In this document: positions 1 to 20,082 of the stretch, piece after piece
How positions within the stretch are numbered: position 1 is the stretch's first letter
How the letters are laid out: every line of letters begins with the position of its first letter
Source of the DNA: a virus
Taxonomy: Duplodnaviria > Heunggongvirae > Uroviricota > Caudoviricetes
Virus record (IMG/VR): IMGVR_UViG_2671180357_000006
Span: 1-21,881 of that record
Strand: one strand, 5' to 3'
Length of the DNA: 21,881 nucleotides
The notes under the pieces: generated by a model
What the model was told of the DNA's origin: nothing
The model's database searches: none
The model's input: the letters and a program-made list of their open reading frames with translations, nothing else
Made by a program: the position numbers and the translations under genes

Positions 1-121
1 TAAGTTGGAGTCATTACCCTAAATCCCCCGCATAGCATCAGGCGGTTATGAGCGATAAGCAGAAGTTCTCAATGGCTTCCGCTGTTAATGGTGTATCCTA
101 ATTAGCGGGAGCGGGTCATGG

Positions 122-535
122 TTAGTCTGCATAGCTTTTCAGAAAATCTTCTTCAGAAAGAGCTAGGTCATTTTTTATTAAAAATTCCAATAAATTATAC
201 TGAGCTTCTATTCGGTGTTGGCGGAGCGCGCCCATTTTCTGATTAAGAAGTATGTTTTTTATCAACTCTCTAGTGACTACATGCCGAGGGTGCTTTTTTA
301 AGTCAGCGATCCATTTTGGCATTTTATCATTAATTTCCTGCTGTCTTTTTTTTGGCAGCGAATCTATCCCGCCTCCAGCGCCTGGGAACATTACTCTTTT
401 AGAGTGTTCGAGTTCCTCAAATACGTTAGTTAATTTTGTTAATGCATTACCAAGTGCGATTTGAGAGAAAATACCAAAGACCATGTTTTCTTCCTCATGT
501 GGAAACTGTTCGGTCAAGGAGAGCTGATTAATCAT
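122..535 (-). CDS. hypothetical protein (137 aa), no recognisable motif
   Basis: ORF from the six-frame track in an AT-rich segment; ordinary amino-acid composition; the overlapping plus-strand ORF 252..464 looks like antisense noise. Function unknown. Confidence 0.45.
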   Translation of the reverse strand: MINQLSLTEQFPHEEENMVFGIFSQIALGNALTKLTNVFEELEHSKRVMFPGAGGGIDSLPKKRQQEINDKMPKWIADLKKHPRHVVTRELIKNILLNQKMGALRQHRIEAQYNLLEFLIKNDLALSEEDFLKSYAD

Positions 536-744
536 ATGCTAATTTTAGATTGCTATTGATATCAAAGAGTATTCTTAGCAAGGTAAGCGAGCATAATTGA
601 GAGCTTGTTAAATCATATTATTCAATTATAGCTTATTAAGAACATAGGCTGAATGTACCGACCTCGCTACTTAACGCTGTGCAGGCTTATCAACGTCCGT
701 TTCTGGCACATAGCAGTCCTAGAGACTGAATCGCCACGGATAAT

Positions 745-942
745 CTAGACACTTCCGAGCCGTTGATAATACTGGTTTTCATATTCTGTCGGTGACATCT
801 GTTCGCTAGAACCATGCCGACGCTTACTGTTATAAAACATTTCGATGTAATCAAAAATATCACTGCGGGCTTCTTCCCGCGTTCCGTAGATCTTTTTCTT
901 TATCCGTTCGCGTTTCAACCAGCAAACAGTAGATGAAAACTA
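745..942 (-). pseudogene. IS3-family transposase (OrfB / rve integrase core) C-terminal fragment, about 65 codons, no upstream remainder
   Basis: Hand translation of the minus strand gives FSSTVCWLKRERIKKKIYGTREEARSDIFDYIEMFYNSKRRHGSSEQMSPTEYENQYYQRLGSV bounded by stops at 940-942 and 745-747. The YIE-FYN-KRRH-SP-YE pattern matches the conserved C-terminal tail of IS3-family transposases. Not in the ORF track because it is short. Confidence 0.5.
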
Positions 943-1050
943 CAGATATACCTGTAGCCACTGCCATCAGATAGAGTTTGATCATGTGTTTTCCTATGTG
1001 GCTATTGTGTGTAGATGATAAGTAGGTGCTTATATATTTTCAAGGTATAA

Positions 1051-1070
1051 AGGCGTCCATTCGGACGCCT
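1051..1070 (-). terminator. hairpin immediately 3' of the RecA-like gene; weak candidate terminator
   Basis: Perfect 8-bp stem AGGCGTCC / GGACGCCT with a 4-nt loop, 5 bp after the stop codon. On the minus strand it is followed only by TTTATACC, a weak U-tract. Confidence 0.35.
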
Positions 1071-1075
1071 GAAAA

Positions 1076-3415
1076 TTAATCTTCTAATTCATCTGTCGGT
1101 GATGTCTTCTCGCGCCTGTCATCTATTGCCTGTAACGCAGCAATGATTTCAGCTAATGGCTTCTCCCGGTACATCTCGACGATCTGTGATTTGGTGTATT
1201 TCTTCTCGCCAATTTCCACACGCCCGCTGGCGCTCTTGGGCAGGTATCCTTCCTCCAGCATGTATTCGACCAGAGACTCGACGACGTCCAGCCCGCGAGT
1301 CGGGTCGAAGTAGAATTTCCATGAGCATTTGCCAAACGGAGGCGCGACTTTGTTTTTAATGCACTCGGCGCCAACGTCCTGTCCGATCTTCTCTTTGCCA
1401 TCCTTCATGACGGATGCACCCAGACGGATGCGCACCGACGCGTAGAACTTCGGAGAGTCGCCACCCGGAGACGTAGTCGGATCGCCAAACATCACACCAA
1501 TTTTGGTACGCACCTGGTTCAAGAAGATGATGCACGCGTTGTACTTACGCGCCCAAAGCGCCAGAGTAGGGAAGTTCGCACTTGTCGCGCGCGCCAGCGC
1601 CGTGTTGTCGTTCATGTTCAGCTGATCTTTGTCCTTCGCAGTGCCTTCTGCCATCTTGTCGAACTTCTCAGCCTTCGAGTTCGGAACCATCGACGCCAGA
1701 GAGTCGGCTACGATGCAGATAGGGGCTGTTTCCGGAATAAGCTCTTCGTCGCGCACCAGCTTGAGGATTGTGCCGATCAGCTCTACGGAGTCTTCGAAGG
1801 TATCCGGCTGTTTGTAGACCCACTGACCGTCGTCTTCGTCGGCGTTCAGTCCGTTCGCTACCGCCAGACCAACGTCGAAACTGTTTTCGTGGTCAAGGAA
1901 TACGGCCAGACCATCCTGTTTTTGTGCTGACACCATCGCAGCCGTCGCGAGGAATGTGTTGTGGCTGATAATCCCGTTAGACCAGAAAGAGTGTGTTTCC
2001 GGCATCGCTACGTCGAACGTTGGTGCTTCACCTTCCTCAATAGCCACGACTTCGTCGTAGAACAAGTTAGAGTCAATTACCGCTGCCAGTTGTGCAAACA
2101 GATGCTCGTTAAAACGATTCTTTCTGCCAATGAAGGAGACATAGATTTCTCGCAGTTTGTCTATTCCGACACGATCGCCGCGGCCAATAACGTGATCTAC
2201 CAGAACGTAGTCTTTACGAGAGGTCTTGGTGAGTGACTCGTAGAGTGATTTCACTAAGCCGCTGATGTGCGGAACGTAGCCTAAATAAGTGCGGTCAAAA
2301 CTAATGTCCCGTTTGGTTGCCACTGCTAAACGAGCCGGAGACTCGAACCCAATCGTTGACAGGAAAAGGTCGTAGTTAGAGCCACTGAATGACAGCCGGT
2401 AATATATGTTTTTATAACCTGCGACGTGTTTTTCAGAGATAGTTGACGTAATCCCCAGATTCAGGAGCATGAGGCGAATTTGCTGTAGCAGCAGCCCACT
2501 CGCGCTCACAACCTCAATGCAGCGACCATCATTGACGTGGCATTCCAGCTCAAAGTAGCCGCGAAGGAATGCAATTTGAGCCTCGCTATTGGCGCGACGC
2601 ACACTCAACGGAACCTGCTTGCCAGCAGCTTTCTCATACTCCAGACCATATTCTTTAAAAAGCAGCGAACGCACCTCTTTGCTAAACAGCACATGGTCTT
2701 CCGAGCCGTTATGTTTTCTCGTAACTGGCATCTTGTCTGATACCAGCGAAATGAGGCGGTAGTACTCATCCTTGATGAATGGATCTGTGTTAGAAACATG
2801 CACAGAATTTTCAGAGGCCACGTATCCGTCAGCAATTAAATAGCCCATCAGTTTTGCGATATTGGCATCCAAGTGCTGATCGCCGAATTGATGTGTGCCA
2901 ACCATTGAAGGAATAGTGTCGCCTACACTGATTTTTTCAGCATACCGCCAGACGATATTGCCTAAGTCGTCAACCACACGAATTGGGTGACGGAACGTAG
3001 CCTCGATGTAACCCCCTGATGCCAGCTTAATGCGCTTGAATTTGCGACGGTTGTTCCATGTCAGGTGTGAGGTCTTCTCTATCACGCCATTTTCATTGAT
3101 GAGTCCAACGTTATGCTCTACATCGCGAGTAGTGCATGTTGCTTTGTGCCCCTCAATCTCAAACAGTTCTTTCACTGTTACCATTCCACGCTCCGTCAGC
3201 AGCATGGTGTCTGCGGTAACACATTTCCCCGCGCTTGGTGGCCCGAAGACTTCAACGATACGCCCACATGGAAAACCACCGTCGTAACGTCCGGAAATGG
3301 CTTTGTTCAGTGGAGGGAAACCGGAGTCAATCCAGTGGGAGACCTTCTGAATCTCGTCATTGCTGCCGATTTTCTTTTTCAGCGCCAGTGCCAGTGCGGA
3401 TTTGCCTTTTGCCAT
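1076..3415 (-). CDS. RecA-family recombinase interrupted by an intein (779-aa precursor; exteins total 357 aa)
   Basis: N-extein ends GRIVEVFGPPSAGK and the C-extein starts TFLATAAMV, which rejoin to a Walker A motif GPPSAGKT. The C-extein carries FLNQVRTKIGVMFGDPTTSPGGDSPKFYASVRIRLG, closely matching the bacterial RecA core [36 protein letters not shown]. AGGAG RBS 7 nt upstream of the ATG. Confidence 0.9.
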   Translation of the reverse strand: MAKGKSALALALKKKIGSNDEIQKVSHWIDSGFPPLNKAISGRYDGGFPCGRIVEVFGPPSAGKCVTADTMLLTERGMVTVKELFEIEGHKATCTTRDVEHNVGLINENGVIEKTSHLTWNNRRKFKRIKLASGGYIEATFRHPIRVVDDLGNIVWRYAEKISVGDTIPSMVGTHQFGDQHLDANIAKLMGYLIADGYVASENSVHVSNTDPFIKDEYYRLISLVSDKMPVTRKHNGSEDHVLFSKEVRSLLFKEYGLEYEKAAGKQVPLSVRRANSEAQIAFLRGYFELECHVNDGRCIEVVSASGLLLQQIRLMLLNLGITSTISEKHVAGYKNIYYRLSFSGSNYDLFLSTIGFESPARLAVATKRDISFDRTYLGYVPHISGLVKSLYESLTKTSRKDYVLVDHVIGRGDRVGIDKLREIYVSFIGRKNRFNEHLFAQLAAVIDSNLFYDEVVAIEEGEAPTFDVAMPETHSFWSNGIISHNTFLATAAMVSAQKQDGLAVFLDHENSFDVGLAVANGLNADEDDGQWVYKQPDTFEDSVELIGTILKLVRDEELIPETAPICIVADSLASMVPNSKAEKFDKMAEGTAKDKDQLNMNDNTALARATSANFPTLALWARKYNACIIFLNQVRTKIGVMFGDPTTSPGGDSPKFYASVRIRLGASVMKDGKEKIGQDVGAECIKNKVAPPFGKCSWKFYFDPTRGLDVVESLVEYMLEEGYLPKSASGRVEIGEKKYTKSQIVEMYREKPLAEIIAALQAIDDRREKTSPTDELED
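1958..3223 (-). other. intein (422 aa) with LAGLIDADG homing-endonuclease domain, inserted in the RecA P-loop between K and T of GPPSAGK/T
   Basis: Starts with Cys (CVTADTMLL) and ends SHN, followed by Thr as the +1 extein residue. Two LAGLIDADG-type motifs inside (LMGYLIADGYV and FLRGYFELECHV). Removing it restores a canonical RecA P-loop. Confidence 0.8.
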
Positions 3416-3417
3416 GA

Positions 3418-3690
3418 TTAGGCTCCTTTTGATTCGTTGATTCGCTTCGAAGCAGCGGCTTCGTCAAACTTGATTGCGTCGTGGTTCAGGTGTTTGGCGA
3501 CGCGAGCGATGATCTTCACGACCTGCTCACTGACCAGCGCGAACTCACGCTCAGTAGCAGAAATGCCAGCAGCGCCCAGAATGTTCGGCAGCGCTACCAC
3601 AGCGTGCTCGCCGTGGCAGAAAACAATCTCCTTTGCCAGCATGGTTGGCGTAGTTGCCCCGCCATTAATGATGGATTTCAGCATCAGCAA
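3418..3690 (-). CDS. hypothetical small protein (90 aa)
   Basis: ORF in operon context; its start overlaps the stop of the upstream FEN gene by 7 bp and its stop lies 3 bp before the RecA-like start. No recognisable motif. Confidence 0.5.
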   Translation of the reverse strand: MLMLKSIINGGATTPTMLAKEIVFCHGEHAVVALPNILGAAGISATEREFALVSEQVVKIIARVAKHLNHDAIKFDEAAASKRINESKGA

Positions 3691-4628
3691 TACCTCTCAA
3701 ACGGCAGAACAAACACTTCCAGATCTTCCAGAAACGAACGGAAATTCAGCTCGTAACACATCTGTTCAAAGGCGCTCATATCGCGTGCGCCTTTAATCGA
3801 CTCGATTTCGCTGGGTGGGAATTTTGTGTCGATAAGGTTCATCAGCATCATGTTGCGCTTAAAGGCTTCGAGCATCCGGCAGCCCGTCTTCTCGTTGAAG
3901 GCGTTCTTTGCCAGCTTGTTGAATGCCGTCTTATAGCGACCTTTGTTGATGACAATGGAACCGTCGTTAATGCCGCGTACCATTGCGGCCACGCTTCCCC
4001 ATTCATGAAGCAGCTCTTTCGCGCCACCATCACCAATGCCACCTACGCCTTTGATGTTGTCCGAGTTATCGCCCTGCAATGCTTTCGCTTCCAGAAACGC
4101 GCGTGGGGTCGGCAGACCGGTCAGCTCTGCGAACTGTTCGAAGTTCACCTGCTTGTGCTTGGCGTCTTCACGCAGGCTTATCCAGCTCACGTTCTCACGA
4201 ACAAGCTGGAGCCAGTCGCCATCGCCCGTTAGCAGATAGATATGGTCAACAGTCGGCTGCGGAGCCAGACGAGAGACCAGCATTCCAGCCAGGTCATCCG
4301 CTTCTGCGTCCTTTGCAATGAGTTGGTTAACGCCCAGCGCGGTCATCATTTTCAAGATGTACGGCTTCTGGATGGCAAAGCCTTCTTTCATCTTCTTCAT
4401 GTCCGGGTCGTCGTCGCGGTTCGCTTTGTACTCCGGGTAGAAGTCGCGACGTTTGTCGCTGAATCCATCCCACAAGATCATTGGCCGGGCATGGAGAATT
4501 GAGGCGTAACGACGAACGTTCTTCACGAAGCCAAAAGCCGCCTGAACTTCCATCTCGCCGTTGTGTAATTTGTCGGATTGCTGGTGGTAATAGCCCAGGC
4601 TGTTACCGTCCACAAAGAGATAATTCAC
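3684..4628 (-). CDS. 5'-3' exonuclease / flap endonuclease (FEN family, Xni / T5 D15-like)
   Basis: Motifs YLFVDGNSLGYY (N-terminal nuclease motif), LLTGDGDWLQLV and ALQGDNSDNIKGVGGIG (helix-hairpin-helix region). Start reassigned to the GTG at 4626-4628, which has an AAGGAG RBS 7 nt upstream; the track's ATG at 4679 would place a terminator hairpin inside the coding sequence. Confidence 0.8.
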   Translation of the reverse strand: MNYLFVDGNSLGYYHQQSDKLHNGEMEVQAAFGFVKNVRRYASILHARPMILWDGFSDKRRDFYPEYKANRDDDPDMKKMKEGFAIQKPYILKMMTALGVNQLIAKDAEADDLAGMLVSRLAPQPTVDHIYLLTGDGDWLQLVRENVSWISLREDAKHKQVNFEQFAELTGLPTPRAFLEAKALQGDNSDNIKGVGGIGDGGAKELLHEWGSVAAMVRGINDGSIVINKGRYKTAFNKLAKNAFNEKTGCRMLEAFKRNMMLMNLIDTKFPPSEIESIKGARDMSAFEQMCYELNFRSFLEDLEVFVLPFERYC

Positions 4629-4643
4629 CGGTACACTCCTTCC

Positions 4644-4672
4644 AAAAAGTAAGGCGTCCGCAGACGCCTTAC
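4644..4672 (-). terminator. rho-independent terminator downstream of the SSB-like gene
   Basis: Perfect 10-bp stem GTAAGGCGTC / GACGCCTTAC with a 4-nt loop, followed on the minus strand by TTTTT; 17 bp after the stop at 4689. Confidence 0.65.
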
Positions 4673-4688
4673 TGGTCACGTTATGGGA

Positions 4689-5705
4689 TTACAGAGCGTC
4701 CAGTTCAGCCAGCAGGTTATCGAGACCTTCATCAGCTGGTACAGATGCAGCGGCAGCAGATGCTGAAGCACTTGCGGCTTCGGTGGCTTCCGGAGCTTTC
4801 GCTTCTTCCGGTTTGAACTCAGCTTCAGCGGCACGCAGGATCTCTTCATCAACCAGGCTGGTGGACTCTGGCGCCGGAGTATGTGCTGTAGCGACAGCAG
4901 CTGCGCCTTCCGTATGACCAGTGATAGAGCCAAAGCCTGGCAGTCCAGCTGCGGCTGATTTTGCAGCGGAAGAAATGGCTGGTGAGGACATAGTTGCTGC
5001 CGGAGCCGCAATACCAATCAGACGACCCATAGTGCGAGCCGTGGACAGCAAACGAGTTTCGTCAGCCTGGTTCGCATATGCGATCAGATCGTGTTGGGTA
5101 GTCCAGAGCTTCTCAGGAATGTCGCCTTTGTAGACTTTACGTTTCGGGGATACGTCGTACTTGGTGTCACGACCGGAACCGGTGCGTTTAATCAGGAACG
5201 CATAGCCTTCTTCTTTGCTCAGTGGGTTGCCAATATCGTCCGCAATATCTTCGGACATCACTTTGCAGATATCGTCGAAGACCGTAGACGGCAGCTCAAT
5301 CAGCTGGCATTTCTCTGCGTCCGCAAAGTCTTCACGCGCAGACAGAACACCGTTGACCAGATAACGCGGCGTAGCACGCATACTATTAATGCGCTCTTCC
5401 ATCGCTTTGTTGCCCTTAAAGCGAGCGCGACCTTCCATAACCATCTCACACAGCTGGCAAGCGTGGCCGTGGGTGTGTTGTTCGCAGATATAGGCGGTGG
5501 TTACATCTTTGCCTTCCTCATTCTGATGCTTAACGTAGTGCATACCGAAAGTCTGGAAGAACACGCCATTCGGATCGTCCTTGTTCGGAAAAATGCGCAG
5601 ATAGTTATTGCCATCTTTCAGACGGGTCAAATCAATGTTATTGCCACGTTTGGAAGCAATATCGCCACGGGTCTTGTTAAGCAGATCAAGTAATGACTTA
5701 GACAT
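4689..5705 (-). CDS. ssDNA-binding protein, T4 gp32-like (338 aa)
   Basis: Segment YLRIFPNKDDPNGVFFQTFGMHYVKH resembles gp32 [26 protein letters not shown]; a His/Cys cluster (CEQHTHGHACQLC) as in the gp32 zinc site; Ala/Ser-rich linker and acidic C-terminal tail DNLLAELDAL. AAGGAG RBS upstream. Confidence 0.65.
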   Translation of the reverse strand: MSKSLLDLLNKTRGDIASKRGNNIDLTRLKDGNNYLRIFPNKDDPNGVFFQTFGMHYVKHQNEEGKDVTTAYICEQHTHGHACQLCEMVMEGRARFKGNKAMEERINSMRATPRYLVNGVLSAREDFADAEKCQLIELPSTVFDDICKVMSEDIADDIGNPLSKEEGYAFLIKRTGSGRDTKYDVSPKRKVYKGDIPEKLWTTQHDLIAYANQADETRLLSTARTMGRLIGIAAPAATMSSPAISSAAKSAAAGLPGFGSITGHTEGAAAVATAHTPAPESTSLVDEEILRAAEAEFKPEEAKAPEATEAASASASAAAASVPADEGLDNLLAELDAL

Positions 5706-5824
5706 GTATTTCTCCTTGTTGTGATTGTGGCCATTGGCGCTATGCGCATTGGGCGTTCGTTTGTTCGTGGCTCTTTCGAGCGAGAAGAATGATAGATCAG
5801 TACTTACTTACTATATAGCATAAA

Positions 5825-6298
5825 TTAACGGGGTAAATGGAATCGTTCGGCCCCCAGACGCTCTATCTCTACGATAGCCATCTTCGACGCCTGGACAATC
5901 ATATCGCGGCGGTGGGAGAAGGCGGCTACAGCGTGCTTGTACAGGTCTGCAATGTGTCGAGCATCGTCGAGTTTCTGGCGCTTTGCGAGGTATTGCGGGT
6001 TGGTTCTAACCTTCGCTTCCAGTACGGATTCATTAAACTTAATTCCATTCATACTCAAGCTCTTACGCTCGTTGTCATAGATTTTTGCCTCGATCGCGTC
6101 GAGAGAGAGTTTTGCATCTGCAACCTCACGTTCTGCCCGTGCCAGCTTAGAGCCATACTCCATCAACAGACGCGGTTGCTGACGCCAGACTTCCTCCAGA
6201 TTGTCGCGGTCGAACTCCAGATCGGACATGATTTTTTCGTAGATATCGGTGCTCATAATGTTATCTATATACTTATTTTCGCATATCAATTTTATCAT
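5825..6298 (-). CDS. hypothetical protein, charged and probably coiled-coil (157 aa; may start at the internal Met at 6256)
   Basis: K/E/R/D-rich composition typical of a real protein, whereas the fully overlapping plus-strand ORF 5837..6346 is Cys-rich and low-complexity. No clear Shine-Dalgarno at either candidate start. Confidence 0.45.
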   Translation of the reverse strand: MIKLICENKYIDNIMSTDIYEKIMSDLEFDRDNLEEVWRQQPRLLMEYGSKLARAEREVADAKLSLDAIEAKIYDNERKSLSMNGIKFNESVLEAKVRTNPQYLAKRQKLDDARHIADLYKHAVAAFSHRRDMIVQASKMAIVEIERLGAERFHLPR

Positions 6299-6365
6299 GT
6301 TGGAATCAGGCGGTGGAGCTGGCTTGCTGAAGAACTTGAGGGCTGACGTAGATAAGCTGATGTAA

Positions 6366-6926
6366 ATGGGGATAATTCTGATAACCTGTAGTCAGTACTG
6401 CGTAGTCGCAGATGCTCTGTATAGCCACGGTTGCGATGATGCGCTCATTTGCTACTACGGAAACTCAGTGTATGTAGAATTTGACCGAGAAGCTAAATCT
6501 TTAGATGAAGCAATCGAATCGGCAATCCTTGATATTGAAACAGCAGGCATTGGCGCAGTGGTGGAATCGGTAGATTCAGCACTGGTAGGCTTGAGCGATA
6601 TTGCTCAACTCTCTGGCTTAACGCGCCAGGCTATTACTCTGCTTAAAGACGGATTACGTGGCAAAGGTGATTTTCCTTGCCCTGTTCAGCGTATCAGCGG
6701 TCAGTCTCCACTCTGGGACTGGGCGGAAGTCGCTAAATGGTTGAACGACTGCGGTCGTCTTGACAGCAAAGACGAAAAAGCACGGGAAGAACTGGTGCGT
6801 AACGCGCGCACATTGAGTACGTGGAATCTTGCCCTGCGTATAAGATCGTTGGGCGACATTCATGAGGTGGAGAGAGTTACTCGCTCACTCAGTCACTCGC
6901 AAGACTGCGAAAAAATTTGCGCATAA
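6366..6926 (+). CDS. putative HTH DNA-binding protein, possibly HicB-like antitoxin fold (186 aa)
   Basis: The only plus-strand gene inside the minus-strand module. Central segment GLSDIAQLSGLTRQAITLLKDG looks like a helix-turn-helix; the N-terminal part loosely resembles HicB-type antitoxins. Ends at a strong bidirectional terminator. Confidence 0.5.
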   Translation: MGIILITCSQYCVVADALYSHGCDDALICYYGNSVYVEFDREAKSLDEAIESAILDIETAGIGAVVESVDSALVGLSDIAQLSGLTRQAITLLKDGLRGKGDFPCPVQRISGQSPLWDWAEVAKWLNDCGRLDSKDEKAREELVRNARTLSTWNLALRIRSLGDIHEVERVTRSLSHSQDCEKICA

Positions 6927-6953
6927 AACCCGCCAAATGGCGGGTTTTTCTTT
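6925..6953. terminator. bidirectional rho-independent terminator between convergent genes
   Basis: AAAA-CCCGCC-AAAT-GGCGGG-TTTTTCTTT: 6-bp GC stem with an A-run on one side and a T-run on the other, lying between the plus-gene stop (6926) and the DnaE stop (6955). Confidence 0.8.
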
Positions 6954-6954
6954 A

Positions 6955-9900
6955 TTACTTATTTATCGTCTCCGCAATATCAGTCAGAATGGCCTCCAGT
7001 CGCTCTCCTTCTTCCGGTCGGAAGTAAAGGATATTCGGGTTAAATCCGTAGAAAACGGTCGCATCCAGCTCCGGCAGATACTCTTTGCGTCCAACCAGGT
7101 CGGATGGTTTGCTCTTGTTGTTGAAGAGCGACGTCGCCCGGCTGCCACACGTCAGCACATAGGTCGGACGCACCAGATTTATCTCTTCACGCATAAAGTC
7201 GGTGAACTGGCCGATCTCGTCTTTGGTGTAGTCCTTCTCTTTGTCCTTCACCTTTTTGCACACGCCTGTGACGTAGAGATCGCCCATGCGCAGATCGCCT
7301 GCAGTAAGCAACTTCGCCTTAAAGTCGTCGTAGCCGTTCTCCATGAAGTAGCCGGTACGCCCATCATTGCCGTTCGCGTTGTCCAGAATGACCATGATTT
7401 TCGGCTTAATGCCAATGCTTGGGCGGATCAGGTCGTCTCCCAGACCCATTTCGGCCGCCATGCGAGTCATCAGTACATTCACCTCGGCAGAGCGCTTAGG
7501 GTTCATCTCGAACGGTCGAGAGGCTTTTACAGCGTCGATCACCAGATTGCCCATCAACTCTGCCTGGTCGCGCAGTCGTTCCGGATCTGTCGCTGGCAGA
7601 CTGCCAGACTCAATCGATGCGAACGCACCGACTTTTTGCAGCGACTCGCGTACCCGGCTGTTACATGCACGCTTCTCGACCGCTTCCTCAAATTGCGCCA
7701 GTGATTCGAATTTGCCGCCAACTTTCTCACGCGCTCTCATGATGGCCTGGCAACCATTCTCAGAGCAGCCTTTCACAGCAGAGAATGGTGCATACAGAAC
7801 CTGACTGCCGTCTTCCAGCGTGCGGATCTCAATTCGGTTAGATGACACGTTAACGTCTGGTGGCAATACGCGAATGCCATAGGTCAGCGCATCTTTAACC
7901 AGCCCCTGGTGCTTATCCTCGCCCAGAATGGTGAGCGCAGCAGCGAAGAACTCAGCAGGGTAATGTGTCTTTAACCACATAGACTGATAGCTGATTAAAG
8001 AATAAGCAACACTGTGTGATTTGTTGAAGGCATATCCACCGAACTTCTCAAAGGCGTCCCATATTTCTTGGGCTTTTTTCTTACTGAGACCTTCTTGTTC
8101 AGAGACGATCTCCACGTAGTCTATGCCGTCACTAATAGCCTCGCTGTAGCTTCTACGCTTACCGTCTGAGCAATCCAGTTTTGCGTGTTTGTGAACCTCT
8201 ACAGTACCTCCATTTTTGAGTGACAGTGTCACCCAGCCTGCTTGTGCTCGTTCTACAAAATCGCTGCCGATCGCTTTCATCTTATCCATGTTCTTTTTAC
8301 CGATAGCGGAACGCAGAGCGTCTGCTTCGGCCATAGAGAACCCGGCAAGTACTCGGGAACTTTGCATGATTTGTTCCTGATAGAGCAAAACACCATTAGT
8401 CTCCCGGGTGACTTCCTCAAGACGCGGATGAATTGAATGTGGAGCCATGAAGCCTTTGGCCACGGAGACATAGTCGTCCAACATGCCGGATTGGATCGGG
8501 CCAGGTCGGAAGAGTGCGGTCGTGGCGACAACGGTTTTGAAGCTCATTGGCTCAATGCCACCGCCCAGATCTTTAAGCAGCTTGCGCATGGGGCCGGACT
8601 CCAGCTGGAATACGCCCTGCGTGTACCCTGCAGCGAACCCATCCAGAACCTTACGATCGTCCAGTGGAATAGCATCGAGATTGATGTCTTCCCCGGTACT
8701 CTCTTTGATGTAGCGTTTCGCGCTATCCAGCAGATCGAGCGTTGCCAGACCGAGAACGTCCAGCTTAATCAGCCCCATCGCCTCGCAGTAACGTTTATCG
8801 AACGCAATACAGCGAGCGTTGCCACGCAGCTCGACGGGCGTGCGCTCTACCAGTGGAACGCCAGCGACGATCATCCCCGCAGCGTGACGACCAAAACCAC
8901 GCATCAGGCTTTGCAGCTTACACGCCGCTTTGAACGCTTCCGGGTTTTTCGTGGCGTATTTGTCCAGGCTGGCCAGTTGCTCGCGCAGCTCTTCCAGAGA
9001 CAGGCTATCGTCTTCCAGATTCTTGAACTCTTTGGATACCGCCATATCCGCAGCGTCGACACCGTAAATACGCGCAGTGTCTCGCAGCGCAGAAGCGGCG
9101 CCCAGATAGGTGAAGTTTGGAATACCGGCAACGTAATCTTCGCCATAGCGTTCATTCAGATACTCGATCACCTCATGACGACGTGCCTGGCTGAAGTCCA
9201 GATCCGCATCCGGTAAGTCAAGACGTTCAGGGTTGATGAAACGCTCAAACAGAAGACCGTGACGGATAGGATCGACGTTGGTTATGCCTATGCACCACGC
9301 CACCAGAGAACCGGCAGAGGAACCACGACCTGGCCCAACCGGTATTCCTGTTTCACGGCAGTGATTCATCAGATCGCGTACCATCAGGAAGTAGCCACAG
9401 AAGCCCAGACGGGTCAGTGTGTCCATTTCGTACTTCAGTCGCTCAACATACACTCGGTGCTCAGAAGCCGGTGGTGTGTAGCCAAACTCTTTAGTAGTTA
9501 GACGCTTGCGTAGCCCCGCGACAGCCAGCTTCATCAGCGTTGCAGGCTCGTCGTCTGCCATCTTGGGCAGTGCTGGTGGCAGTTCATGCCAGCGCCATGT
9601 GCAGGCTTCAATAATGGTGTCCTGCGTTGTTGAGACCATTGCAGCTGTTACCGGTACGCCCATGCGAACGGAGAAGGCTTTCAGCGCTTCAAGGAGATGG
9701 CGACGACCATTAACAGCGTTATCTCGCTGGTGGGGGATGCGCAGACGATGCGGCTGGTCGATTTTGATGTTGTTCGTAACCATGTGCGCAATGTCTTTAA
9801 TGTCAGCGTCGTCGATCGCTTCGTAATAAGCGGGATAGAACGCCACTGGCTCTATTTTCAGTGCGCTCGCCACTTTCATCGCCCGGACGTTAATCTGGTC

Positions 9901-10461
9901 GTAGAATGGGGTAGGGTGCGGATAAACCACGCTGTAGAAGTTATCGCGTCCTCCAGCTGTCACCAGCGTCCCGATAATCTTTGCGAAGTCCCGGCGCTGG
10001 AATACACTGCCAATGTCGGACGTCAGCAGGATGATGTTGCCTTTGGCATATGCGGCCGCCAGCTGGTCAAGTGCCAGACGCGGAACAAAGTAGAATTGCT
10101 CGCGCTTGTTGGCTAAGGTCATCAGTTCGCACACGTCGCGATAACCTTGCTCATTCTTTATCAGTGCCGTGAAGCAGTAGCTTCGATCACGCACCAATGA
10201 TTCCATACATCCTCCTGACTCTTTCGCCAGGCGGGCGCGATGCTCGTATGTCGGATCGTCGACCACATTCAGCTTAACACCACAAATAACCGCCATGTCG
10301 TCGCCAGCGGCACGCTGCAGGGGGATCACACTGGCAATGTTCATGCTGTCAGCGGAAATGACAGCGGTGTAGCCAGCGTCTCTCGCGATTTTCACCGCGT
10401 TTTCTGCTTTTAGAGCTGACTCTCCCAGGGAGAAGTCAGTTCTGACCATCAGAGCCTTCAT
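6955..10461 (-). CDS. DNA polymerase III alpha-type (DnaE family, C-family polymerase), 1168 aa, with a non-canonical C-terminal domain
   Basis: Strong DnaE motifs: [10 protein letters not shown]...[27 protein letters not shown]...[21 protein letters not shown] (palm with catalytic aspartates), FRPGP, [42 protein letters not shown]. The N-terminal PHP-like region lacks the His pairs. Confidence 0.92.
   Translation of the reverse strand: [1168 protein letters not shown]
6958..7404 (-). other. C-terminal ~150-aa domain of the DnaE-like protein resembling a family-4 uracil-DNA glycosylase fold with degenerate catalytic motifs
   Basis: [18 protein letters not shown]...LYVTGVCKK...[17 protein letters not shown]...[14 protein letters not shown] aligns by eye with family-4 UDG (LVLVGEGPGEEEDKTGRPF...VYITNIVKCRPP...IVPLGAVAA...FPMFHPAYLLRNP); GEGPG is replaced by DNANG and HP by NP. 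It sits where bacterial DnaE has its OB-fold and tau-binding region. Confidence 0.55.
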
Positions 10462-10639
10462 GTGCTTTTACCTTTCTGGTTTTCTTGATTTTGTCATTGG
10501 GGAAGCCAACGAACTTCCCATACATCGAAATCGCAACCTCTTTGGCTGACTGGTGGCACTCGGGTCTATCCGGACATGCCAAACAAGCACTGCCAGTTTC
10601 AGACGCTGCGATAAGAGAGCCGAAACATCCTTTACGCAC
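10436..10639 (-). CDS. possible small Cys-rich protein (67 aa, GTG start)
   Basis: ORF filling the 180-bp gap between the CobS-like stop and the DnaE start; contains CLACPDRPECH; overlaps the DnaE start by 26 nt. Could instead be non-coding leader. Confidence 0.25.
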   Translation of the reverse strand: MRKGCFGSLIAASETGSACLACPDRPECHQSAKEVAISMYGKFVGFPNDKIKKTRKVKAHEGSDGQN

Positions 10640-10641
10640 GA

Positions 10642-11877
10642 TTAACCAAAGATCTTCTGAACCACTTCACGCGCTGCCTGTGCAGACGTGGATGGAAGTT
10701 TATTGATAAACGACTTTTCGATGCCGGCAGAGAAATCACCGCGCATCATTCCGATTTTGGCGGACAGCAGCAGCTCACGAGGCCCGATTGGCTGGCTAAT
10801 CTGATGCTTTTCATAACCTTCACGGATAAGATTCGCGAACTTCACCATCTTCTCGGCGTATTCGCGGATGACGCCTGCTTCAGCCAGCATGTTGACTTCT
10901 GCCTTCGTACTCATGTACTTCACGTTTGAAACAATGCCAAAACGCGAGAAGTTCGCTGCGTTCTGGATGTTTGTGCCTTGATAGAGACCTGTTTCGTCGC
11001 CAGAGCCGTTAGTGTTGCCAGTGCCAATGAAGGCAAAGCGTTTATGCGGGGTGATGCGGCGCCAGTCCGCAGTTGCCTCTTTGATGATCAGCGGCTCTCC
11101 TTCAAGAACTGGCTGATACACACCCAGAATCTGCGGGAACGCGAAGTCATATTCATCAGCGAGGTAAACCCAACCATTTTTCATCGCCAGCGCTAGTAAA
11201 CCCGGTTCGAAATAGGTGGAACCATCGCGAGCGAGGATCTGGCCTGTAACGTGCGCTTCCTCCATAGACGCCGTATGCTGGGCGCGGATCAGTGGTCGAT
11301 TTAGCAGGGCACATAGCTGCGTAGGAAGAGAAGATTTACCGGTTCCTGCATGGCCCCAGAGATAACCCGGGATTCCGATTTCCAGCATCATGAAGATGTC
11401 TTTAATCAGGTCGAAGTCGCCATACACATAGTTCTTCTTCGCTTCCGGTACGAACTCCGGATATGGCGTGTTGACGTTGACTGTCACCTGTAGTGGCTTT
11501 CCGCGTGGCGTTCCCAGCTCTTTGATCGTTATGCCAAGCAGCTCGTGCGCGGCCACCAGTTCGGTCTTGTATTCGACCGTTCCTGCGTAGCCCGGATGTG
11601 CGCTAATCTCCGCTACTTTTCCTTCGCCTGAATGCTTTTCGGCACGCTTCTCATTGAGTTTGGCCAGTGCCGTGCGAGAGATCGTTGGTTCATCTGGAAA
11701 CGCAGAGGTGTACATCTTCACCACTTCGTCCACGTCCAGACCCTTCGCAGACTCAGGAATATTCTCGCAACGGCCCATAGAGATATGGGATTTCAGGTAA
11801 TGAAAGGATTTGCCACACCACTTGCAGACGATGGCTTCCGGCAAATGTTCTTCTTGCTGTAGTGCAGTAGCGGTCAT
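10642..11877 (-). CDS. CobS/MoxR-like AAA+ ATPase with N-terminal zinc-finger-like extension (411 aa)
   Basis: Walker A GHAGTGKSS, Walker B region VYLADEYDFAFPQILGVYQPVLEG, sensor region TNIQNAANFSRF as in CobS/MoxR. N-terminal CKWCGKSFHYLKSHISMGRC Cys/His cluster. TAAGGA RBS upstream. Confidence 0.8.
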   Translation of the reverse strand: MTATALQQEEHLPEAIVCKWCGKSFHYLKSHISMGRCENIPESAKGLDVDEVVKMYTSAFPDEPTISRTALAKLNEKRAEKHSGEGKVAEISAHPGYAGTVEYKTELVAAHELLGITIKELGTPRGKPLQVTVNVNTPYPEFVPEAKKNYVYGDFDLIKDIFMMLEIGIPGYLWGHAGTGKSSLPTQLCALLNRPLIRAQHTASMEEAHVTGQILARDGSTYFEPGLLALAMKNGWVYLADEYDFAFPQILGVYQPVLEGEPLIIKEATADWRRITPHKRFAFIGTGNTNGSGDETGLYQGTNIQNAANFSRFGIVSNVKYMSTKAEVNMLAEAGVIREYAEKMVKFANLIREGYEKHQISQPIGPRELLLSAKIGMMRGDFSAGIEKSFINKLPSTSAQAAREVVQKIFG

Positions 11878-11974
11878 GTGTTTTTTCCTTACTGTTTGTC
11901 GTTCGTGGGGTATATCTTATATAAATATATTAGGCTGTATAGTAAGTGATTACTTATTTTTACGGGTAAAGCTA

Positions 11975-14206
11975 TTACCCAAGAATGATACGAGATAGCT
12001 CAGTGACAACTGACGGCCCTAACTCTTCTACGCTGTTTACCAGCGCGTAATTTTTGTAGAAACGTCGTGGCTCGTCGGTCAGAATCCCGATAGCCATCAG
12101 ATCGATGTCGCTCAAGGTCTCAATTTCTTTGGTGACGGTTCGTAAATGCTGATGGAATCCACTACCTGTAGCACATGGCTCCCCATCACTCATAACCAGC
12201 ATGATCTTTTTGTCCTCCATTCGCCCTGCAAACAGGGTAGCCAGTTGCGCGATACTCTCACCATCGACGTTATTGAGCAGGGGGAACGTCTCACATACGC
12301 ATCCCATGCGAGCACGGATCTCTGGAGAGTTTGCTTTCTCATTCCAGTTTTTGATAATGGGCAGCATGAGCGCCTCGAAGCGTGTAAACCCGCGCTTCGA
12401 CCTAGTTTCATAATCTGGGCTACCGAACGTGGTAAAGCCGGTGATGATGTTGGGGACATTGATACGATCTAAAGCATCCGTAATGGTATAGGCACTGGCT
12501 AGGGCCAGTTGAATCTTCACGCCATCCATTGAGCCGGACAAGTCGATGACCTGCTGGACACACGCGTTCACCGCTCTATGGTCTTCCTTCTTGCGGAACA
12601 CTCGGTCGTCGTTCATTGCCAGACGATACAGGCTCGCGCCATGTATCCGCCCACGCCTCTGACCAGGTATAAACTGAACTCGGTTGCGGCTGGCGATGGC
12701 CCGCTCTAGGTCTTTGGCCAGCGTCGAAGAAACGCCTGCAGACAGATGTTTTTCGATTTTCAGTTCAAAGAGTTTTCTGCCTTCTGGCACCATACGGTAG
12801 CGGTCGACTGGTGAGTGCATTGGTATTGCACCGAACGTCTTTCTGGTGCGCTTCACATGCTCTTCGGCTCCATCAATCAACCCGATAAAGTCGTATGATC
12901 GATCGTATGGCCGATAATCAGAAGGTGAGACGCTCATAAGCTCTTTGCTGATGGTGGCCGACAGTGCGTCTTCGGTCATTTCACCGATTCCGTCTTCCAT
13001 CTCGTCGAGCGCCTTTAGCGCCTCCTCCAGAGTCATTTCATCCGGCGCAGGAACAAAGCCAGACTCACTGTCTTTGGGCACTTCCGCACCATCTTTATTT
13101 TTTTTGCCTTCGACGTCTTCTTCTTCAGTTTCCCCACGATCAGTATCGGAGTCCTCACCGCCATCACCATCGGTGTCAGAGTCACTTGATTTCATGCCGA
13201 TAGCATCGGATTCTGGGGTGTCTCCTGACTCTTCGTGGCCTGCTTCTGTATATTTACTTTCTGTATCACTAATATCTTTAACGTGTGTAGGTAAGTCCTT
13301 ATCTAACGAATCAGGCAAATCGGAATCCCCAGAATCTTCCTCTTCTGATGCATCATCTTCTCGTTCTTCCTTGTCATCGCCTTCGCCTTTGGCAGGCTTA
13401 GATGCAGAGTCACCATGAGACGGTTCGTCACCTGATTCTGGCGTTTCCTCGGACTCGTCTTTGCTCTCCGACGGCTTTCTGGAAGATGATTTAAGTTCTG
13501 GTAATTTGCCCTCTGGCTTGTCTTTCATATCCTGCATGATTTGGGCTATAGCAGCAGCGACCTTCACGCAATCCTCAGTGTTCGACATATTGCGAACGGC
13601 CACGTCTATACCATGCTCCTTTAGTAAGGCTACCGGCCTCTCGATAAGGCGCCAGTGTTCTTCCATAAAATCGATGAAGGGGCTTTGTCCATCCCAGGCG
13701 CGGACGACCGGGCAAAGGAAGAATTTCAAAAACAATTCACGCTGGTCTCCGTGACAGGCTAAAACCGCTTCTGGTACTTTATTCCTGAAGTATTTGTCGA
13801 TAACCAGACTCTGTGTTGCAAGTAAATTACGCCGGGTTCCGTTAAAGACCTGCCCCATTCTGCGTTCAATAAAAACGTCTTCCAGCGCATTCCAAAGCCC
13901 CGTAGACGGAGCCTTTCCTCTTTCGTGCATCTGCATTGCGACTTTCGGTTCAGTAAAGAGAATATGGGCCACCTCATGGTCGAGAAAACCACGCACTGCG
14001 TTCATGAGGGTTGGCGACGCGTCGTCCGGTATAGATGGGATGTTTACCAGCACTGGTTCGCCGCGCCGGTTATAGCGGACATATGCTTCATTGCCTCGTT
14101 CTGCAACAGGTATCTGTTTACCTGAAAGCATCGCTACAACTCGTTTTACACAGTCGCGAAAATCCTGCACCTCTTTCAGTACAGCTTTGGTGGTTTTTTT
14201 GGACAT
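11975..14206 (-). CDS. CobT-like von Willebrand factor A (vWA) protein with HExxH motif and long acidic linker (about 744 aa from the RBS-supported start)
   Basis: C-terminal vWA domain with MIDAS DLSGSM and SDGEP; central ~145-aa Asp/Glu/Ser-rich low-complexity region; N-terminal LDHEVAHILF (HExxH). Start reassigned to the ATG at 14204-14206 preceded by AAGGGA; the track's ATG at 14275 lies inside an inverted repeat. Confidence 0.8.
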   Translation of the reverse strand: MSKKTTKAVLKEVQDFRDCVKRVVAMLSGKQIPVAERGNEAYVRYNRRGEPVLVNIPSIPDDASPTLMNAVRGFLDHEVAHILFTEPKVAMQMHERGKAPSTGLWNALEDVFIERRMGQVFNGTRRNLLATQSLVIDKYFRNKVPEAVLACHGDQRELFLKFFLCPVVRAWDGQSPFIDFMEEHWRLIERPVALLKEHGIDVAVRNMSNTEDCVKVAAAIAQIMQDMKDKPEGKLPELKSSSRKPSESKDESEETPESGDEPSHGDSASKPAKGEGDDKEEREDDASEEEDSGDSDLPDSLDKDLPTHVKDISDTESKYTEAGHEESGDTPESDAIGMKSSDSDTDGDGGEDSDTDRGETEEEDVEGKKNKDGAEVPKDSESGFVPAPDEMTLEEALKALDEMEDGIGEMTEDALSATISKELMSVSPSDYRPYDRSYDFIGLIDGAEEHVKRTRKTFGAIPMHSPVDRYRMVPEGRKLFELKIEKHLSAGVSSTLAKDLERAIASRNRVQFIPGQRRGRIHGASLYRLAMNDDRVFRKKEDHRAVNACVQQVIDLSGSMDGVKIQLALASAYTITDALDRINVPNIITGFTTFGSPDYETRSKRGFTRFEALMLPIIKNWNEKANSPEIRARMGCVCETFPLLNNVDGESIAQLATLFAGRMEDKKIMLVMSDGEPCATGSGFHQHLRTVTKEIETLSDIDLMAIGILTDEPRRFYKNYALVNSVEELGPSVVTELSRIILG

Positions 14207-14259
14207 TAGAATTCCCTTGTTGTTAAAACAATTTGTTTTCTGATGTGCGTAATTTATCA

Positions 14260-14292
14260 CTGTACGAACAGGCATCTAATCTGTTCGTACAG
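14260..14292. promoter_or_regulatory. perfect 12-bp inverted repeat (candidate operator) in the promoter region of the CobT/CobS/DnaE gene block
   Basis: CTGTACGAACAG-N9-CTGTTCGTACAG, 54-86 bp upstream of the CobT-like start, overlapping a plausible -35/-10 on the minus strand. Confidence 0.4.
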
Positions 14293-14310
14293 GCGCTAGA
14301 GAGGATGGGA

Positions 14311-14318
14311 GGGGGGGG
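14311..14318. repeat. G8 homopolymer tract (C8 on the coding strand of the flanking operon)
   Basis: Directly visible run of eight G between the stop of the 70-aa gene (14319) and the inverted repeat. Confidence 0.9.
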
Positions 14319-14531
14319 TTAAATTGTGCGGACGGCTACTGAACCGCAGCCGGTATTGATGAGAGTGAAGCACTTGCCCTTTAGCTCAAAGATGTATGCG
14401 GTTGCGTCTTTCATGTCAAGTAACAAAGACTTTGTTGGCAGTTCAGTGAGTATGGCTGCTGCCCCATCATCGTCAATTGAAATCGTATGTCCGACCTCAA
14501 GGGCGATCAAATTAGAAGTTATTTTTTTCAT
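14319..14531 (-). CDS. hypothetical small protein (70 aa)
   Basis: First gene transcribed leftward from the divergent AT-rich control region; GGA-type RBS; the antisense ORF 14326..14655 is less plausible. Confidence 0.4.
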   Translation of the reverse strand: MKKITSNLIALEVGHTISIDDDGAAAILTELPTKSLLLDMKDATAYIFELKGKCFTLINTGCGSVAVRTI

Positions 14532-14787
14532 TTCATATCATCCAACTGAACACGTAAATACCTTGCAATACTACTACCTATTGTATCAATACGGAATACT
14601 TATGTATCAAATACAACTTAGTTTTAAGTTCTTAAATGAGTTATTTTTTAGATAGTTGTCTATTAGTGAAGCCTTTTGCGGTCAGTAAACCTATGTAAAA
14701 AAATAGATAAGTCTTTACAACACTAACCTTTGATGTAATATCAGTAAGCACTTACCAAATAAAATCAAAACACGCAGGTTGATAATT

Positions 14788-15177
14788 ATGGCTACCAACG
14801 AAACAAAAGAAGCTAAAGTAAGTCGCTACGCTGCTTACATTGACGCTTTAATCGCGATTTCTCCGAAAAGCCAGGCGACCATCGCGAAAGAAGCAGGCTA
14901 TAAAAACCCTAACAATCTTTCACTTATCAAGAGCGGCAAAATCCCGCTTCCGATCGACAAGGTCAGAGCGTTGGCTAAAGCATTGGATGCCGATTCGGTC
15001 CGATTGATGCTAATGGTGCTGGAAGAGCGTCATCCAGAGCTGTTAGCGTTTTTTCGCGACGAAGGCACAGCCCCTCTGACTAAAGATGAAAAACTAGTTC
15101 TGGAAGCCTTCCGTCGACGTTTCGGTGACCAACGTGGTGCGTCGGAGCGGGTTGTTGAGGCAATCAAGTCGCTATGA
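14788..15177 (+). CDS. putative HTH transcriptional regulator (130 aa from ATG; the track's TTG start at 14779 is less likely)
   Basis: SQATIAKEAGYKNPNNLSLIKSGKIPLPIDKVRALAKAL looks like a helix-turn-helix; AGG 9 nt upstream of the ATG; transcribed divergently from the 70-aa gene across a 256-bp AT-rich region; stop overlaps the integrase stop. Confidence 0.6.
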   Translation: MATNETKEAKVSRYAAYIDALIAISPKSQATIAKEAGYKNPNNLSLIKSGKIPLPIDKVRALAKALDADSVRLMLMVLEERHPELLAFFRDEGTAPLTKDEKLVLEAFRRRFGDQRGASERVVEAIKSL

Positions 15178-16275: not shown

Positions 16276-16303
16276 AGTCCACTCACTGAGTGAAGCCTGT
16301 TTT

Positions 16304-16323: not shown

Positions 16324-16372
16324 TATTAGGCCTAAGTTTTGTATGATCAACAGTAAAATAGACTGTTTTTGA

Positions 16373-17780: not shown

Positions 17781-17784
17781 ATGT

Positions 17785-20075: not shown

Positions 20076-20082
20076 AGACATC

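Follow-up and report, generated by a model that had tools for sequence, protein, structure and literature searches.

A replication and recombination module with T4-like parts and a UDG-tailed DnaE in what is very probably an SSU5-like phage-plasmid of Escherichia coli

A 21,881-nucleotide stretch of viral DNA (IMG/VR record IMGVR_UViG_2671180357_000006, positions 1 to 21,881), here called the window, encodes between positions 1076 and 10461 a RecA/UvsX-like recombinase, a 5'-3' exonuclease of the flap endonuclease (FEN) type, a single-stranded DNA-binding protein (SSB) like gp32 of phage T4, and a C-family DNA polymerase, DnaE. We concluded that this interval is very probably the module for DNA replication and recombination in a siphovirus phage-plasmid like SSU5, a low-copy plasmid of ~106 kb in Escherichia coli, and that its proteins may work by a T4-like mechanism. 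A first-pass annotation of the window had described a self-contained toolkit for recombination-dependent replication in an integrase-associated element and had left three alternatives for its nature; of these, the phage-plasmid proved correct, by identity to plasmid pBL12EC-1 and phage SSU5. The element family, a very common one, and the odd architecture of its DnaE have been described before, and in that sense the finding is an ordinary one.

Positions 1 to 18006 of the window were 99.5% identical to pBL12EC-1, an E. coli plasmid of 106 kb, and 98-99% identical to a series of E. coli plasmids of 105-115 kb. Salmonella phage SSU5 (JQ965645) has the same gene order, with 93.7% nucleotide identity over the shared parts, and Escherichia phage Cyrano (82.8%) and Klebsiella phage-plasmids were 80-83% identical. 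Although the window itself has no structural or packaging genes, its twin pBL12EC-1 carries a full range of them (terminase, portal, major capsid, tape measure and tail fibers), alongside genes for a Rep3-type RepA (Rep3_N, 2.4e-11) and ParB. The replication genes that the twin has outside the stretch covered by the window encode a DnaB-like helicase, a Toprim (DnaG-like) primase, a DnaQ-like exonuclease and an SF2 helicase; there is also an SbcCD-like pair, made up of an Mre11-like phosphoesterase and an SMC/Rad50-like ATPase, and, by annotation, a ligase and RuvC. Thymidylate synthase, DfrA51 (a dihydrofolate reductase, DHFR), a pyrophosphohydrolase-domain gene and a HumD (UmuD-like) gene are found on the same plasmid. 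The module is thus not self-contained, since helicase, primase, ligase, proofreading exonuclease, SbcCD-like and RuvC-like functions lie elsewhere on the plasmid. Of the flanking genes that the first-pass annotation had suggested looking for, the structural, packaging, helicase and primase genes are all present on the twin, and no clamp gene was seen.

The dnaE gene occurred in 245 of 5,426 complete E. coli genomes (about 4.5%), at 251 places, and was plasmid-borne in every case. The possibility that these are chromosomal housekeeping genes was rejected, as none of the 251 places was chromosomal and the protein is only 31% identical to E. coli DnaE. Nor is the carriage of a DnaE unusual, as had been thought: 817 plasmids in PLSDB encode this DnaE at ≥60% identity. 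They are mostly non-mobilizable, come from Klebsiella, Escherichia, Enterobacter, Yersinia, Salmonella and Citrobacter, and measured ~105-120 kb in the few records inspected; Acinetobacter phage-plasmids have a version that is 37-40% identical. The SSU5 supergroup (SSU5_pHCM2 group) of phage-plasmids was defined by Pfeifer et al. 2021, with recombination genes placed in its persistent genome, and pHCM2 of S. Typhi and pMT1/pFra of Y. pestis belong to the same supergroup (PMC7969092). Cyrano forms virions of the siphovirus type, responds to ciprofloxacin with a 39-fold induction and is present at 5.5 copies per cell (PMC9928086). Because of the near-identity to pBL12EC-1 and SSU5, the phage and plasmid genes on the twin, and a dnaE that is always plasmid-borne, we assigned positions 1 to 18006 of the window, with near certainty, to a phage-plasmid of the SSU5/pHCM2/pMT1 supergroup.

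Pfam and PHROG scans confirmed the RecA-like protein, the gp32-like SSB, the FEN-type exonuclease and DnaE within the interval given in the first-pass annotation; all four are on the minus strand (Table 1). The RecA-like protein matched the PHROG family of UvsX-like recombinases (phrog_97, 3.3e-83), and phrog_9666 spanned the whole precursor, including its intein; its score of 135 bits against TIGR02012, where the cutoff is 325, excludes it from the orthologues of bacterial RecA. An AlphaFold model of the 143-amino-acid (aa) open reading frame (ORF) of the module had a pLDDT of 92.3, and in a Foldseek search of the PDB its top 19 matches were all T4 UvsY (4zwq and 4zwt), with TM scores of 0.66-0.91 and root mean square deviations (rmsd) of 1.7-5.3 Å. 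The best chains had TM scores of 0.73-0.91 at 1.7-3.1 Å, and the very best reached 0.91 at 1.7 Å, with the next fold at 0.51. Searches of this ORF against T4 UvsY and the PDB with phmmer, a profile and hhalign gave nothing significant; its Cyrano homologue is annotated as UvsY. On the strength of the model, we regard it as a candidate UvsY-like mediator that would complete the UvsX/UvsY/gp32 trio. A UvsX-type recombinase, a gp32 SSB and, by fold only, a UvsY are thus encoded together, and the mixture of T4-like parts with a C-family DnaE, which had been recognized at the outset, becomes even more T4-flavored with the UvsY-fold protein. The replisome as a whole is not of the T4 type, its polymerase being a C-family DnaE and not the B-family gp43.

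The RecA-like protein is 779 aa long because it contains an intein of 422 aa. The exteins (aa 1-64 and 487-779) correspond to the 358-aa RecA of SSU5, the C-extein being 96% identical, and the intein (residues 65-486) lies between the K and the T of the Walker A motif (GPPSAGK/T). By inspection we recognized C65 (Cys1), block B TFRH, the C-terminal HN486, the +1 residue T487, LIADG and FELEC, so that every splicing residue is retained, as in a class-1 LAGLIDADG intein, and both splicing and homing are predicted; the N-terminal region of the intein was also matched by TIGR01445. In SSU5 the site is empty and GPPSAGKT is contiguous, and among E. coli genomes the intein was found in 120, about half of the 245 with dnaE. 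The intein DNA was 97.2% identical to the Cyrano copy, whereas the exteins were 86% and the other genes 73-88% identical, which suggests recent horizontal homing of the intein that is apparently ongoing. The exteins themselves appear to be under purifying selection, because they were 96-97% identical to those of Cyrano as protein against 86% as DNA. Twort-like and Bacillus phages have distant relatives of the intein (33%) in their helicase and RecA genes.

DnaE matched the Pfam families DNA_pol3_alpha (7e-73), finger (2.4e-46), HHH_6 and PHP, as well as Pol III alpha structures in the PDB (1e-113 to 1e-124). Its PHP, palm/fingers and helix-hairpin-helix (HhH) domains are followed by a C-terminal domain resembling uracil-DNA glycosylase (UDG) family 4, so that in comparison with a replicative DnaE1 the PHP domain, the polymerase core and (HhH)2 are present and the C-terminal OB fold and tau-binding domain are absent. 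The alignment with E. coli DnaE covered only aa 4-947, with nothing aligned past aa 947, and the score against NF004226 was 691 bits (cutoff, 1002); the first-pass description of a "full" C-family polymerase therefore does not apply. The UDG-like domain (aa ~1048-1164, nucleotides 6970-7320, ~120 residues) matched TIGR00758 at 7e-7, with 29 bits against a cutoff of 125. Family-4 UDGs are characterized by the motifs GE(A/G)PG and HPS, both of which are missing from the DnaE tail. Judged by its sequence, the C terminus of DnaE holds a degenerate domain of the family-4 UDG kind where the OB and tau-binding domains would otherwise stand. The extra DnaE proteins of Y. pestis and S. enterica, the "DnaEX" variant, have been described as having a UDG domain that replaces the OB and C-terminal domains (Timinskas et al. 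2014; PMC3919608). Near aa 970, ~20 residues after the HhH domain, stands the string QAELMG, and because it resembles the internal clamp motif of E. coli, QADMFG, DnaE may use the host clamp. Relative to E. coli DnaE, the protein also has a 47-aa insertion (aa 741-787; window positions 8101-8241, minus strand). Relatives from Klebsiella and Enterobacter have, at the position of this insertion, a 231-aa NUMOD4-HNH endonuclease ORF (positions 2661-3362 in the record labeled L019) that divides dnaE into ORFs of 787 and 397 aa; an Rfam search of the divided gene from the Klebsiella relative detected no intron.

By analogy with T4, these linked and extrachromosomal genes would act as follows. In the prophage state, the element would replicate from a Rep3-type RepA origin. 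After induction (Cyrano, a relative, is SOS inducible), the leftward operons would be expressed, supplying the CobT/CobS-like proteins, DnaE-UDG, the UvsY-like protein, the gp32-like SSB, FEN and the RecA/UvsX-like protein, the last of which would take its active form after intein splicing. DnaE would be partnered by the element's own DnaQ-like exonuclease, DnaB-like helicase and DnaG-like primase and probably by the host beta clamp. With gp32 on single strands, UvsY would load the recombinase, the resulting filament would invade another copy of the genome, and the 3' end would prime synthesis. Primers and flaps would be removed by FEN, nicks would be sealed by ligase, and ends and branches would be processed by the RuvC-like and SbcCD-like enzymes, the product being concatemers for packaging by the terminase. 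Recombination-dependent replication of this kind seems the best candidate mechanism and could be the main lytic mode, a proposal on which our confidence is evenly divided.

Several observations weigh against such a T4-like scheme. The literature searched yielded no experiment on how any SSU5-like element replicates. The identity of UvsY is by fold only, with a Foldseek E value of about 2e-3 and no significance in hhalign; no clamp, clamp loader or gp59 was annotated on the twin or identified, and, unlike in T4, no equivalents of gp59, gp45 or gp44/62 were found; and the polymerase is of the C family and not of the B family used by T4. The lineage may also be phage-defective, the ligase gene of the twin having an internal stop and its tail-tip gene a frameshift, and the window contains an insertion sequence (IS) fragment and a transposon. 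Separately, we found no open-access papers linking SSU5 with UvsX or pHCM2 with DNA polymerase III.

The signs of damage would fit a different state of affairs, in which this copy is a decaying, virion-incompetent phage-plasmid and the module is a relic without current function. They comprise an IS3 fragment (745-918) and the Tn1721-type insertion in the window and, on the 99.5% identical twin, IS1 and ISKpn26 in addition to the internal stop in the ligase gene and the frameshifted tail-tip fiber gene. However, the module ORFs in the window are all intact and have good ribosome-binding sites (RBSs), the intein retains all its splicing residues, and the exteins appear to be under the purifying selection described above. 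We think decay of this copy possible but doubtful; it is in any case compatible with the interval being the replication module of a phage-plasmid.

Alternatively, the module might mainly serve the plasmid state, in repair, damage tolerance or copy-number amplification under stress, and not lytic replication. A DnaE without a tau-binding domain is barred from the usual way into the host holoenzyme, a HumD gene is present on the twin, and a LexA-box-like site lies in the region; moreover, many family members, pHCM2 and pMT1 among them, are known only as stable plasmids and are not known as virion producers. Yet the set is one of phage replisome and presynaptic proteins, and it has as linked genes thymidylate synthase, DHFR and one with a pyrophosphohydrolase domain, as is typical of lytic replication; it is also kept in SSU5, an infectious phage isolate that lacks the repressor/integrase segment. 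In Cyrano, too, the module homologues (replication genes CYRAN_47-55) are absent from the moron table, which scores expression against the local prophage background and does list the adjacent "putative repressor" CYRAN_45 (PMC9928086). A role confined mainly to the plasmid state therefore seems unlikely to us, and both it and the decay of this copy are less supported than a phage-plasmid replication module with a T4-like mechanism.

The gene map (Table 1) was assembled from the ORF listing, an ARAGORN tRNA scan, and Pfam, PHROG and NCBIfam scans of the window; an Rfam scan of the window returned the tRNA as its sole match. The tight and co-oriented junctions of the first-pass annotation held in part. 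Co-orientation stands, with the reservation that a plus-strand helix-turn-helix (HTH) gene interrupts the block, and tightness is limited to the RecA-orf88 (2-nucleotide gap) and orf88-exonuclease (1-nucleotide overlap) junctions, the remaining module junctions measuring 60-180 nucleotides. The canonical RBSs that had been claimed are there, of the AGGAG type for RecA (AAGGAG), the exonuclease (GGAAGGAG) and gp32 (AAGGAG) and AAAGG for DnaE, and all are good Shine-Dalgarno sequences. For the exonuclease, we chose the GTG start at 4628, which is preceded by GGAAGGAG; the longest ORF extends to 4679, and the gene is annotated with a length equal to ours in pBL12EC-1, SSU5 and Cyrano. Homologues of orf88 were confined to SSU5-like plasmids, and its AlphaFold model is helical and of low confidence (pLDDT, 67). 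For the HTH gene, the pBL12EC-1 annotation gives a transcriptional regulator of the HTH type and that of SSU5 an AlpA-like protein, and the start of the CobT-like gene at 14206, with an AAGGGA RBS, agrees with the annotation.

Table 1. Features of the window, with positions counted from its first nucleotide
Feature	Position	Strand	Supporting match or remark
RecA/UvsX-like precursor, 779 aa	1076-3415	-	Pfam RecA 1.2e-36
Predicted class-1 intein with LAGLIDADG homing endonuclease, 422 aa	1958-3223	-	Pfam LAGLIDADG_3 6.3e-18, Intein_splicing 1.7e-11
88-aa ORF (orf88)	3418-3684	-	phrog_2207 3e-58
FEN / T4 RNase H-type 5'-3' exonuclease, 314 aa	3684-4628	-	Pfam 5_3_exonuc_N 2.1e-24, 5_3_exonuc 4.4e-12
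T4 gp32-like SSB, 338 aa	4689-5705	-	Pfam gp32 9e-72; phrog_1192 5.3e-120
UvsY-fold recombination mediator candidate, 143 aa	5825-6256	-	Predicted fold
HTH regulator, 186 aa, AlpA/excisionase-like	6366-6926	+	phrog_2620 4.6e-85
DnaE, C-family polymerase, 1168 aa	6955-10461	-	Pfam; phrog_405 1203 bits
CobS-like AAA+ (MoxR/AAA_5) ATPase	10642-11877	-	Pfam AAA_5 4.5e-15; phrog_249 3.4e-108
CobT-like VWA protein	11975-14206	-	Pfam CobT_C 5.4e-107, CobT 5.1e-35
orf70	14319-14531	-	
HTH129, 129-aa HTH protein, putative repressor	14788-15177	+	
Tyrosine recombinase (integrase)	15172-16275	-	Pfam Phage_integrase 6.5e-9
Integrase upstream control region	16304-16406	-	Palindrome and LexA-box-like site
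YafO toxin	16575-16991	-	Pfam YafO 1.1e-19
YafO upstream partner	16982-17530	-	
tRNA-Asn (GTT)	17785-17859	-	ARAGORN; Rfam 76 bits
Tn1721-type (Tn3-family) transposon, left part	18007-21881	+	Homology to pBL12EC-1 ends at 18006
Transposon, 38-bp inverted repeat	18007-18044		
Transposon, methyl-accepting chemotaxis protein (MCP)/aerotaxis-like gene	18196-19773	-	
Transposon, tnpR	20083-20643	+	
Transposon, tnpA, 5' part	from 20647	+	

The tyrosine recombinase gene lies 1.5 kb from the tRNA-Asn gene, with the YafO toxin pair between them; the first-pass annotation had spoken of a P4-type integrase beside a tRNA. The match to the P4-type model PRK09692 is weak (31 bits against a cutoff of 434); there is a Phage_integrase match of 36 bits, a sub-threshold Phage_int_M match and no DUF4102 arm domain, so that the architecture is not that of a P4-type integrase. 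No recombinase in the PDB matched at E≤0.01. Full-length relatives, at 80-92% aa identity, came solely from SSU5-like phages and from Yersinia pestis, Kluyvera and Buttiauxella contigs of ~100 kb; lambdoid, Gifsy and Stx integrases followed at 23-30% identity. In the 5,426 complete E. coli genomes, the integrase region had 281 places, all on plasmids and none chromosomal. The tRNA-Asn gene tells the same story: 794 of 803 E. coli matches to this type were plasmid-borne, and there was no match to the host asn genes. Together with about 40 nucleotides on its 3' side and 150 on its 5' side, it is common to SSU5 and pBL12EC-1, both of which continue beyond it with more phage-plasmid genes, such as that for ligase, and the gene and its flanks also occur in Cyrano. 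Thus, the tRNA-Asn and the integrase are genes of the phage-plasmid and not marks of chromosomal attachment. Directly 3' of the tRNA-Asn there is, in addition, a 20-nucleotide inverted repeat (17703-17783; 90% complementary, 41-nucleotide loop), of which SSU5 has the tRNA-proximal arm only.

Alignments to SSU5 showed that a segment of 3.4 kb (14337-17742), holding orf70, HTH129, the recombinase, YafO and its partner, is absent from that phage. The segment is bounded by CCGTCCG(A/C)AC repeats of 11-12 nucleotides (14326-14336 and 17743-17754), which lie 31-42 nucleotides past the tRNA, do not duplicate its 3' end and are equally compatible with an insertion or a deletion. About 250 E. coli plasmids keep the integrase and HTH part of the segment and only 28 of them the YafO part, and the orf70/HTH/integrase trio is conserved in members from E. 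coli, Salmonella, Klebsiella and Yersinia; the Cyrano homologues of HTH129 and the recombinase are annotated as "putative repressor" and "Integrase." Because the integrase and HTH genes are conserved across genera, a loss is favored, and the simplest reading of the alignments is that SSU5 lost the orf70/HTH/integrase segment. The YafO partner (175-182 aa), to which no family was assigned, has an ORF that overlaps the YafO gene; at the YafO position, other members carry glutaredoxin, PhoH or HicAB as cargo.

In favor of a prophage, integrative conjugative element or island, inserted at a host tRNA-Asn by a P4-type integrase and bringing its own replication kit, stand the tyrosine recombinase 1.5 kb from a tRNA-Asn and the short repeats around the 3.4-kb segment. 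One low-quality 5.2-Mb E. coli record in GenBank (CP125919.1; L018, 418-438 kb) also holds the module, in a fragmented copy whose genes are in many cases truncated. A rare integration would account for that copy, as would a poor or chimeric assembly, and the ends of the element lie beyond the 20 kb examined. Several observations speak against such an element: neither dnaE (251 places) nor the integrase region (281) was ever chromosomal in the complete genomes, the tRNA-Asn is unlike the host asn genes and has SSU5-type DNA on both sides, full-length relatives of the integrase occur only on ~100-kb contigs or in SSU5-like phages, and the integrase has neither the domain nor the score of a P4-type enzyme. 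Mapping of attachment sites, which the first-pass annotation had proposed, gave no duplication, there being no repeat of the tRNA-Asn 3' end between 14200 and 18100. SSU5, for its part, supplies the integrase-independent context that had been named in advance as speaking against integration. With a tRNA-Asn that is the phage-plasmid's own and a module that SSU5 has without any integrase, the integrative reading fails, and we consider it very improbable. In the phage-plasmid, the integrase would instead resolve dimers, as Cre does in P1, a role that we infer by analogy.

The region upstream of the integrase offers some hints about control. About 100 nucleotides upstream of its ATG is a perfect 13-7-13 palindrome, AATGATTCCATAC-N7-GTATGGAATCATT (16374-16406), whose arms are invariant and whose spacer is variable in six divergent SSU5-like elements; the homology among these elements stops at the outer edge of the palindrome. 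Between the palindrome and the ATG is a LexA-box-like 20-mer, TACTGTTTATAAATACAGTA (16304-16323, minus strand), which agrees with the consensus at 18 of 20 positions and whose CTGT-N8-ACAG is conserved in six of six relatives. By count the box is not significant, since at least one CTGT-N8-ACAG occurred in 26 of 100 shuffles and the window has one, and the site draws its weight from position and conservation, not from number. A promoter and terminator scan of 14250-18010 gave counts equal to chance. By eye we found an integrase promoter, TTGATC-16-TAATAT, which matches at 8 of 12 positions and is under the scan threshold; the LexA-box-like site falls between this weak promoter and the ATG. A half-site of the palindrome, the 12-15-mer ATGATTCCATAC(ATC), recurs in single copies at conserved places, inside dnaE (10197-10211, plus strand, in the window) and, in relatives, upstream of the tRNA-Asn and upstream of the ligase block, with no other places in pBL12EC-1; these are the dispersed ATGATTCCATACATC sites. 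Outside the window, copies stand at positions 33024 and 34044 in record L001, 14868 and 20419 in L002, and 14546, 22742 and 23754 in L007. The palindrome could be a lox-like site or an operator, and the dispersed half-site may be an operator or a promoter element. We tentatively suggest, as less probable than its alternatives taken together, that orf70, HTH129 and the recombinase form a lysogeny/induction switch. In it, the LexA box would put leftward transcription from the recombinase to DnaE under SOS control, the lox-like palindrome would serve dimer resolution and cargo swapping, the ATGATTCCATAC(ATC) sites would make up an operator regulon like that of P1 C1, and SSU5 would be a natural deletion derivative. 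The CobS-like/CobT-like pair, which scored far below the cobaltochelatase equivalog cutoffs, is kept between this region and dnaE in all relatives.

The layout of the region recalls P1, a plasmid prophage in which the tyrosine recombinase Cre acts on a 13-8-13 palindrome (lox) and the C1 repressor binds asymmetric operators dispersed over the genome. Here there is a 13-7-13 palindrome beside the recombinase gene together with a dispersed 12-15-mer half-site, a likeness in layout for which no relationship in sequence was shown. With T4 the window shares UvsX-like, UvsY-fold, gp32-family and FEN (RNase H) counterparts, and the SbcCD-like and RuvC-like genes on the twin correspond to gp46/47 and gp49; the differences are the C-family DnaE with its UDG-like tail in place of the B-family gp43 and the nature of the element, a temperate plasmid prophage.

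The closest comparisons are within the supergroup. The gene order that SSU5, the DnaE-encoding phage with which the first-pass annotation's suggested comparison was made, shares with the window runs through RecA, the 88-aa ORF, the exonuclease, the gp32-like and UvsY-like proteins, HTH, DnaE, the CobS-like and CobT-like proteins and tRNA-Asn; SSU5 differs in that its RecA (358 aa) is without an intein, it lacks the 3.4-kb segment and the Tn1721-type insertion, and it has extra small ORFs beside DnaE. Cyrano (pLF82, OV696614) likewise has an intein-bearing RecA of 779 aa, the exonuclease, the gp32-like protein, "UvsY," DnaE, the CobS/CobT-like pair, orf70, the repressor, the integrase and tRNA-Asn in the same order; it differs by its 73-88% DNA identity outside the intein, by HicAB in place of the 186-aa HTH gene, and by three tRNAs and other cargo between the integrase and the tRNAs. 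In Y. pestis, a 108-kb contig has an integrase that is 92% identical and a plasmid encodes a DnaE that is 92.4% identical, and pMT1 carries extra plasmid and virulence cargo.

At its right end, the window runs into a transposon of the Tn1721 type, inserted 147 bp upstream of the tRNA-Asn. It has 65% GC and Pfam matches to MCPsignal, Resolvase (9.5e-39) and DUF4158 (1.8e-54), and copies of it in P1-like phage-plasmids match at 99.9% identity. On the twin, where this stretch is uninterrupted, the insertion point is about 21 bp from one copy of the dispersed motif. At the left end, positions 1-1075 are of low GC and hold a 137-aa ORF (122-535, minus strand) along with part of an IS3-family transposase gene (~745-918); in SSU5 and Cyrano this position is occupied by different genes, SPFH/stomatin among them.

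The value of the finding lies in correct labeling: having a tyrosine recombinase close to a tRNA is not enough for an element to be called integrative, and a plasmid-borne DnaE of this UDG-tailed kind marks a phage-plasmid. As such elements carry resistance genes and transposons, the Tn1721-type insertion here being an example, their induction and copy-number control are of practical relevance, and the control region beside the integrase looks experimentally tractable. For the biology of the family, the combination of a C-family polymerase without a tau-binding domain and T4-type UvsX, UvsY and gp32 proteins poses a modest but real question.

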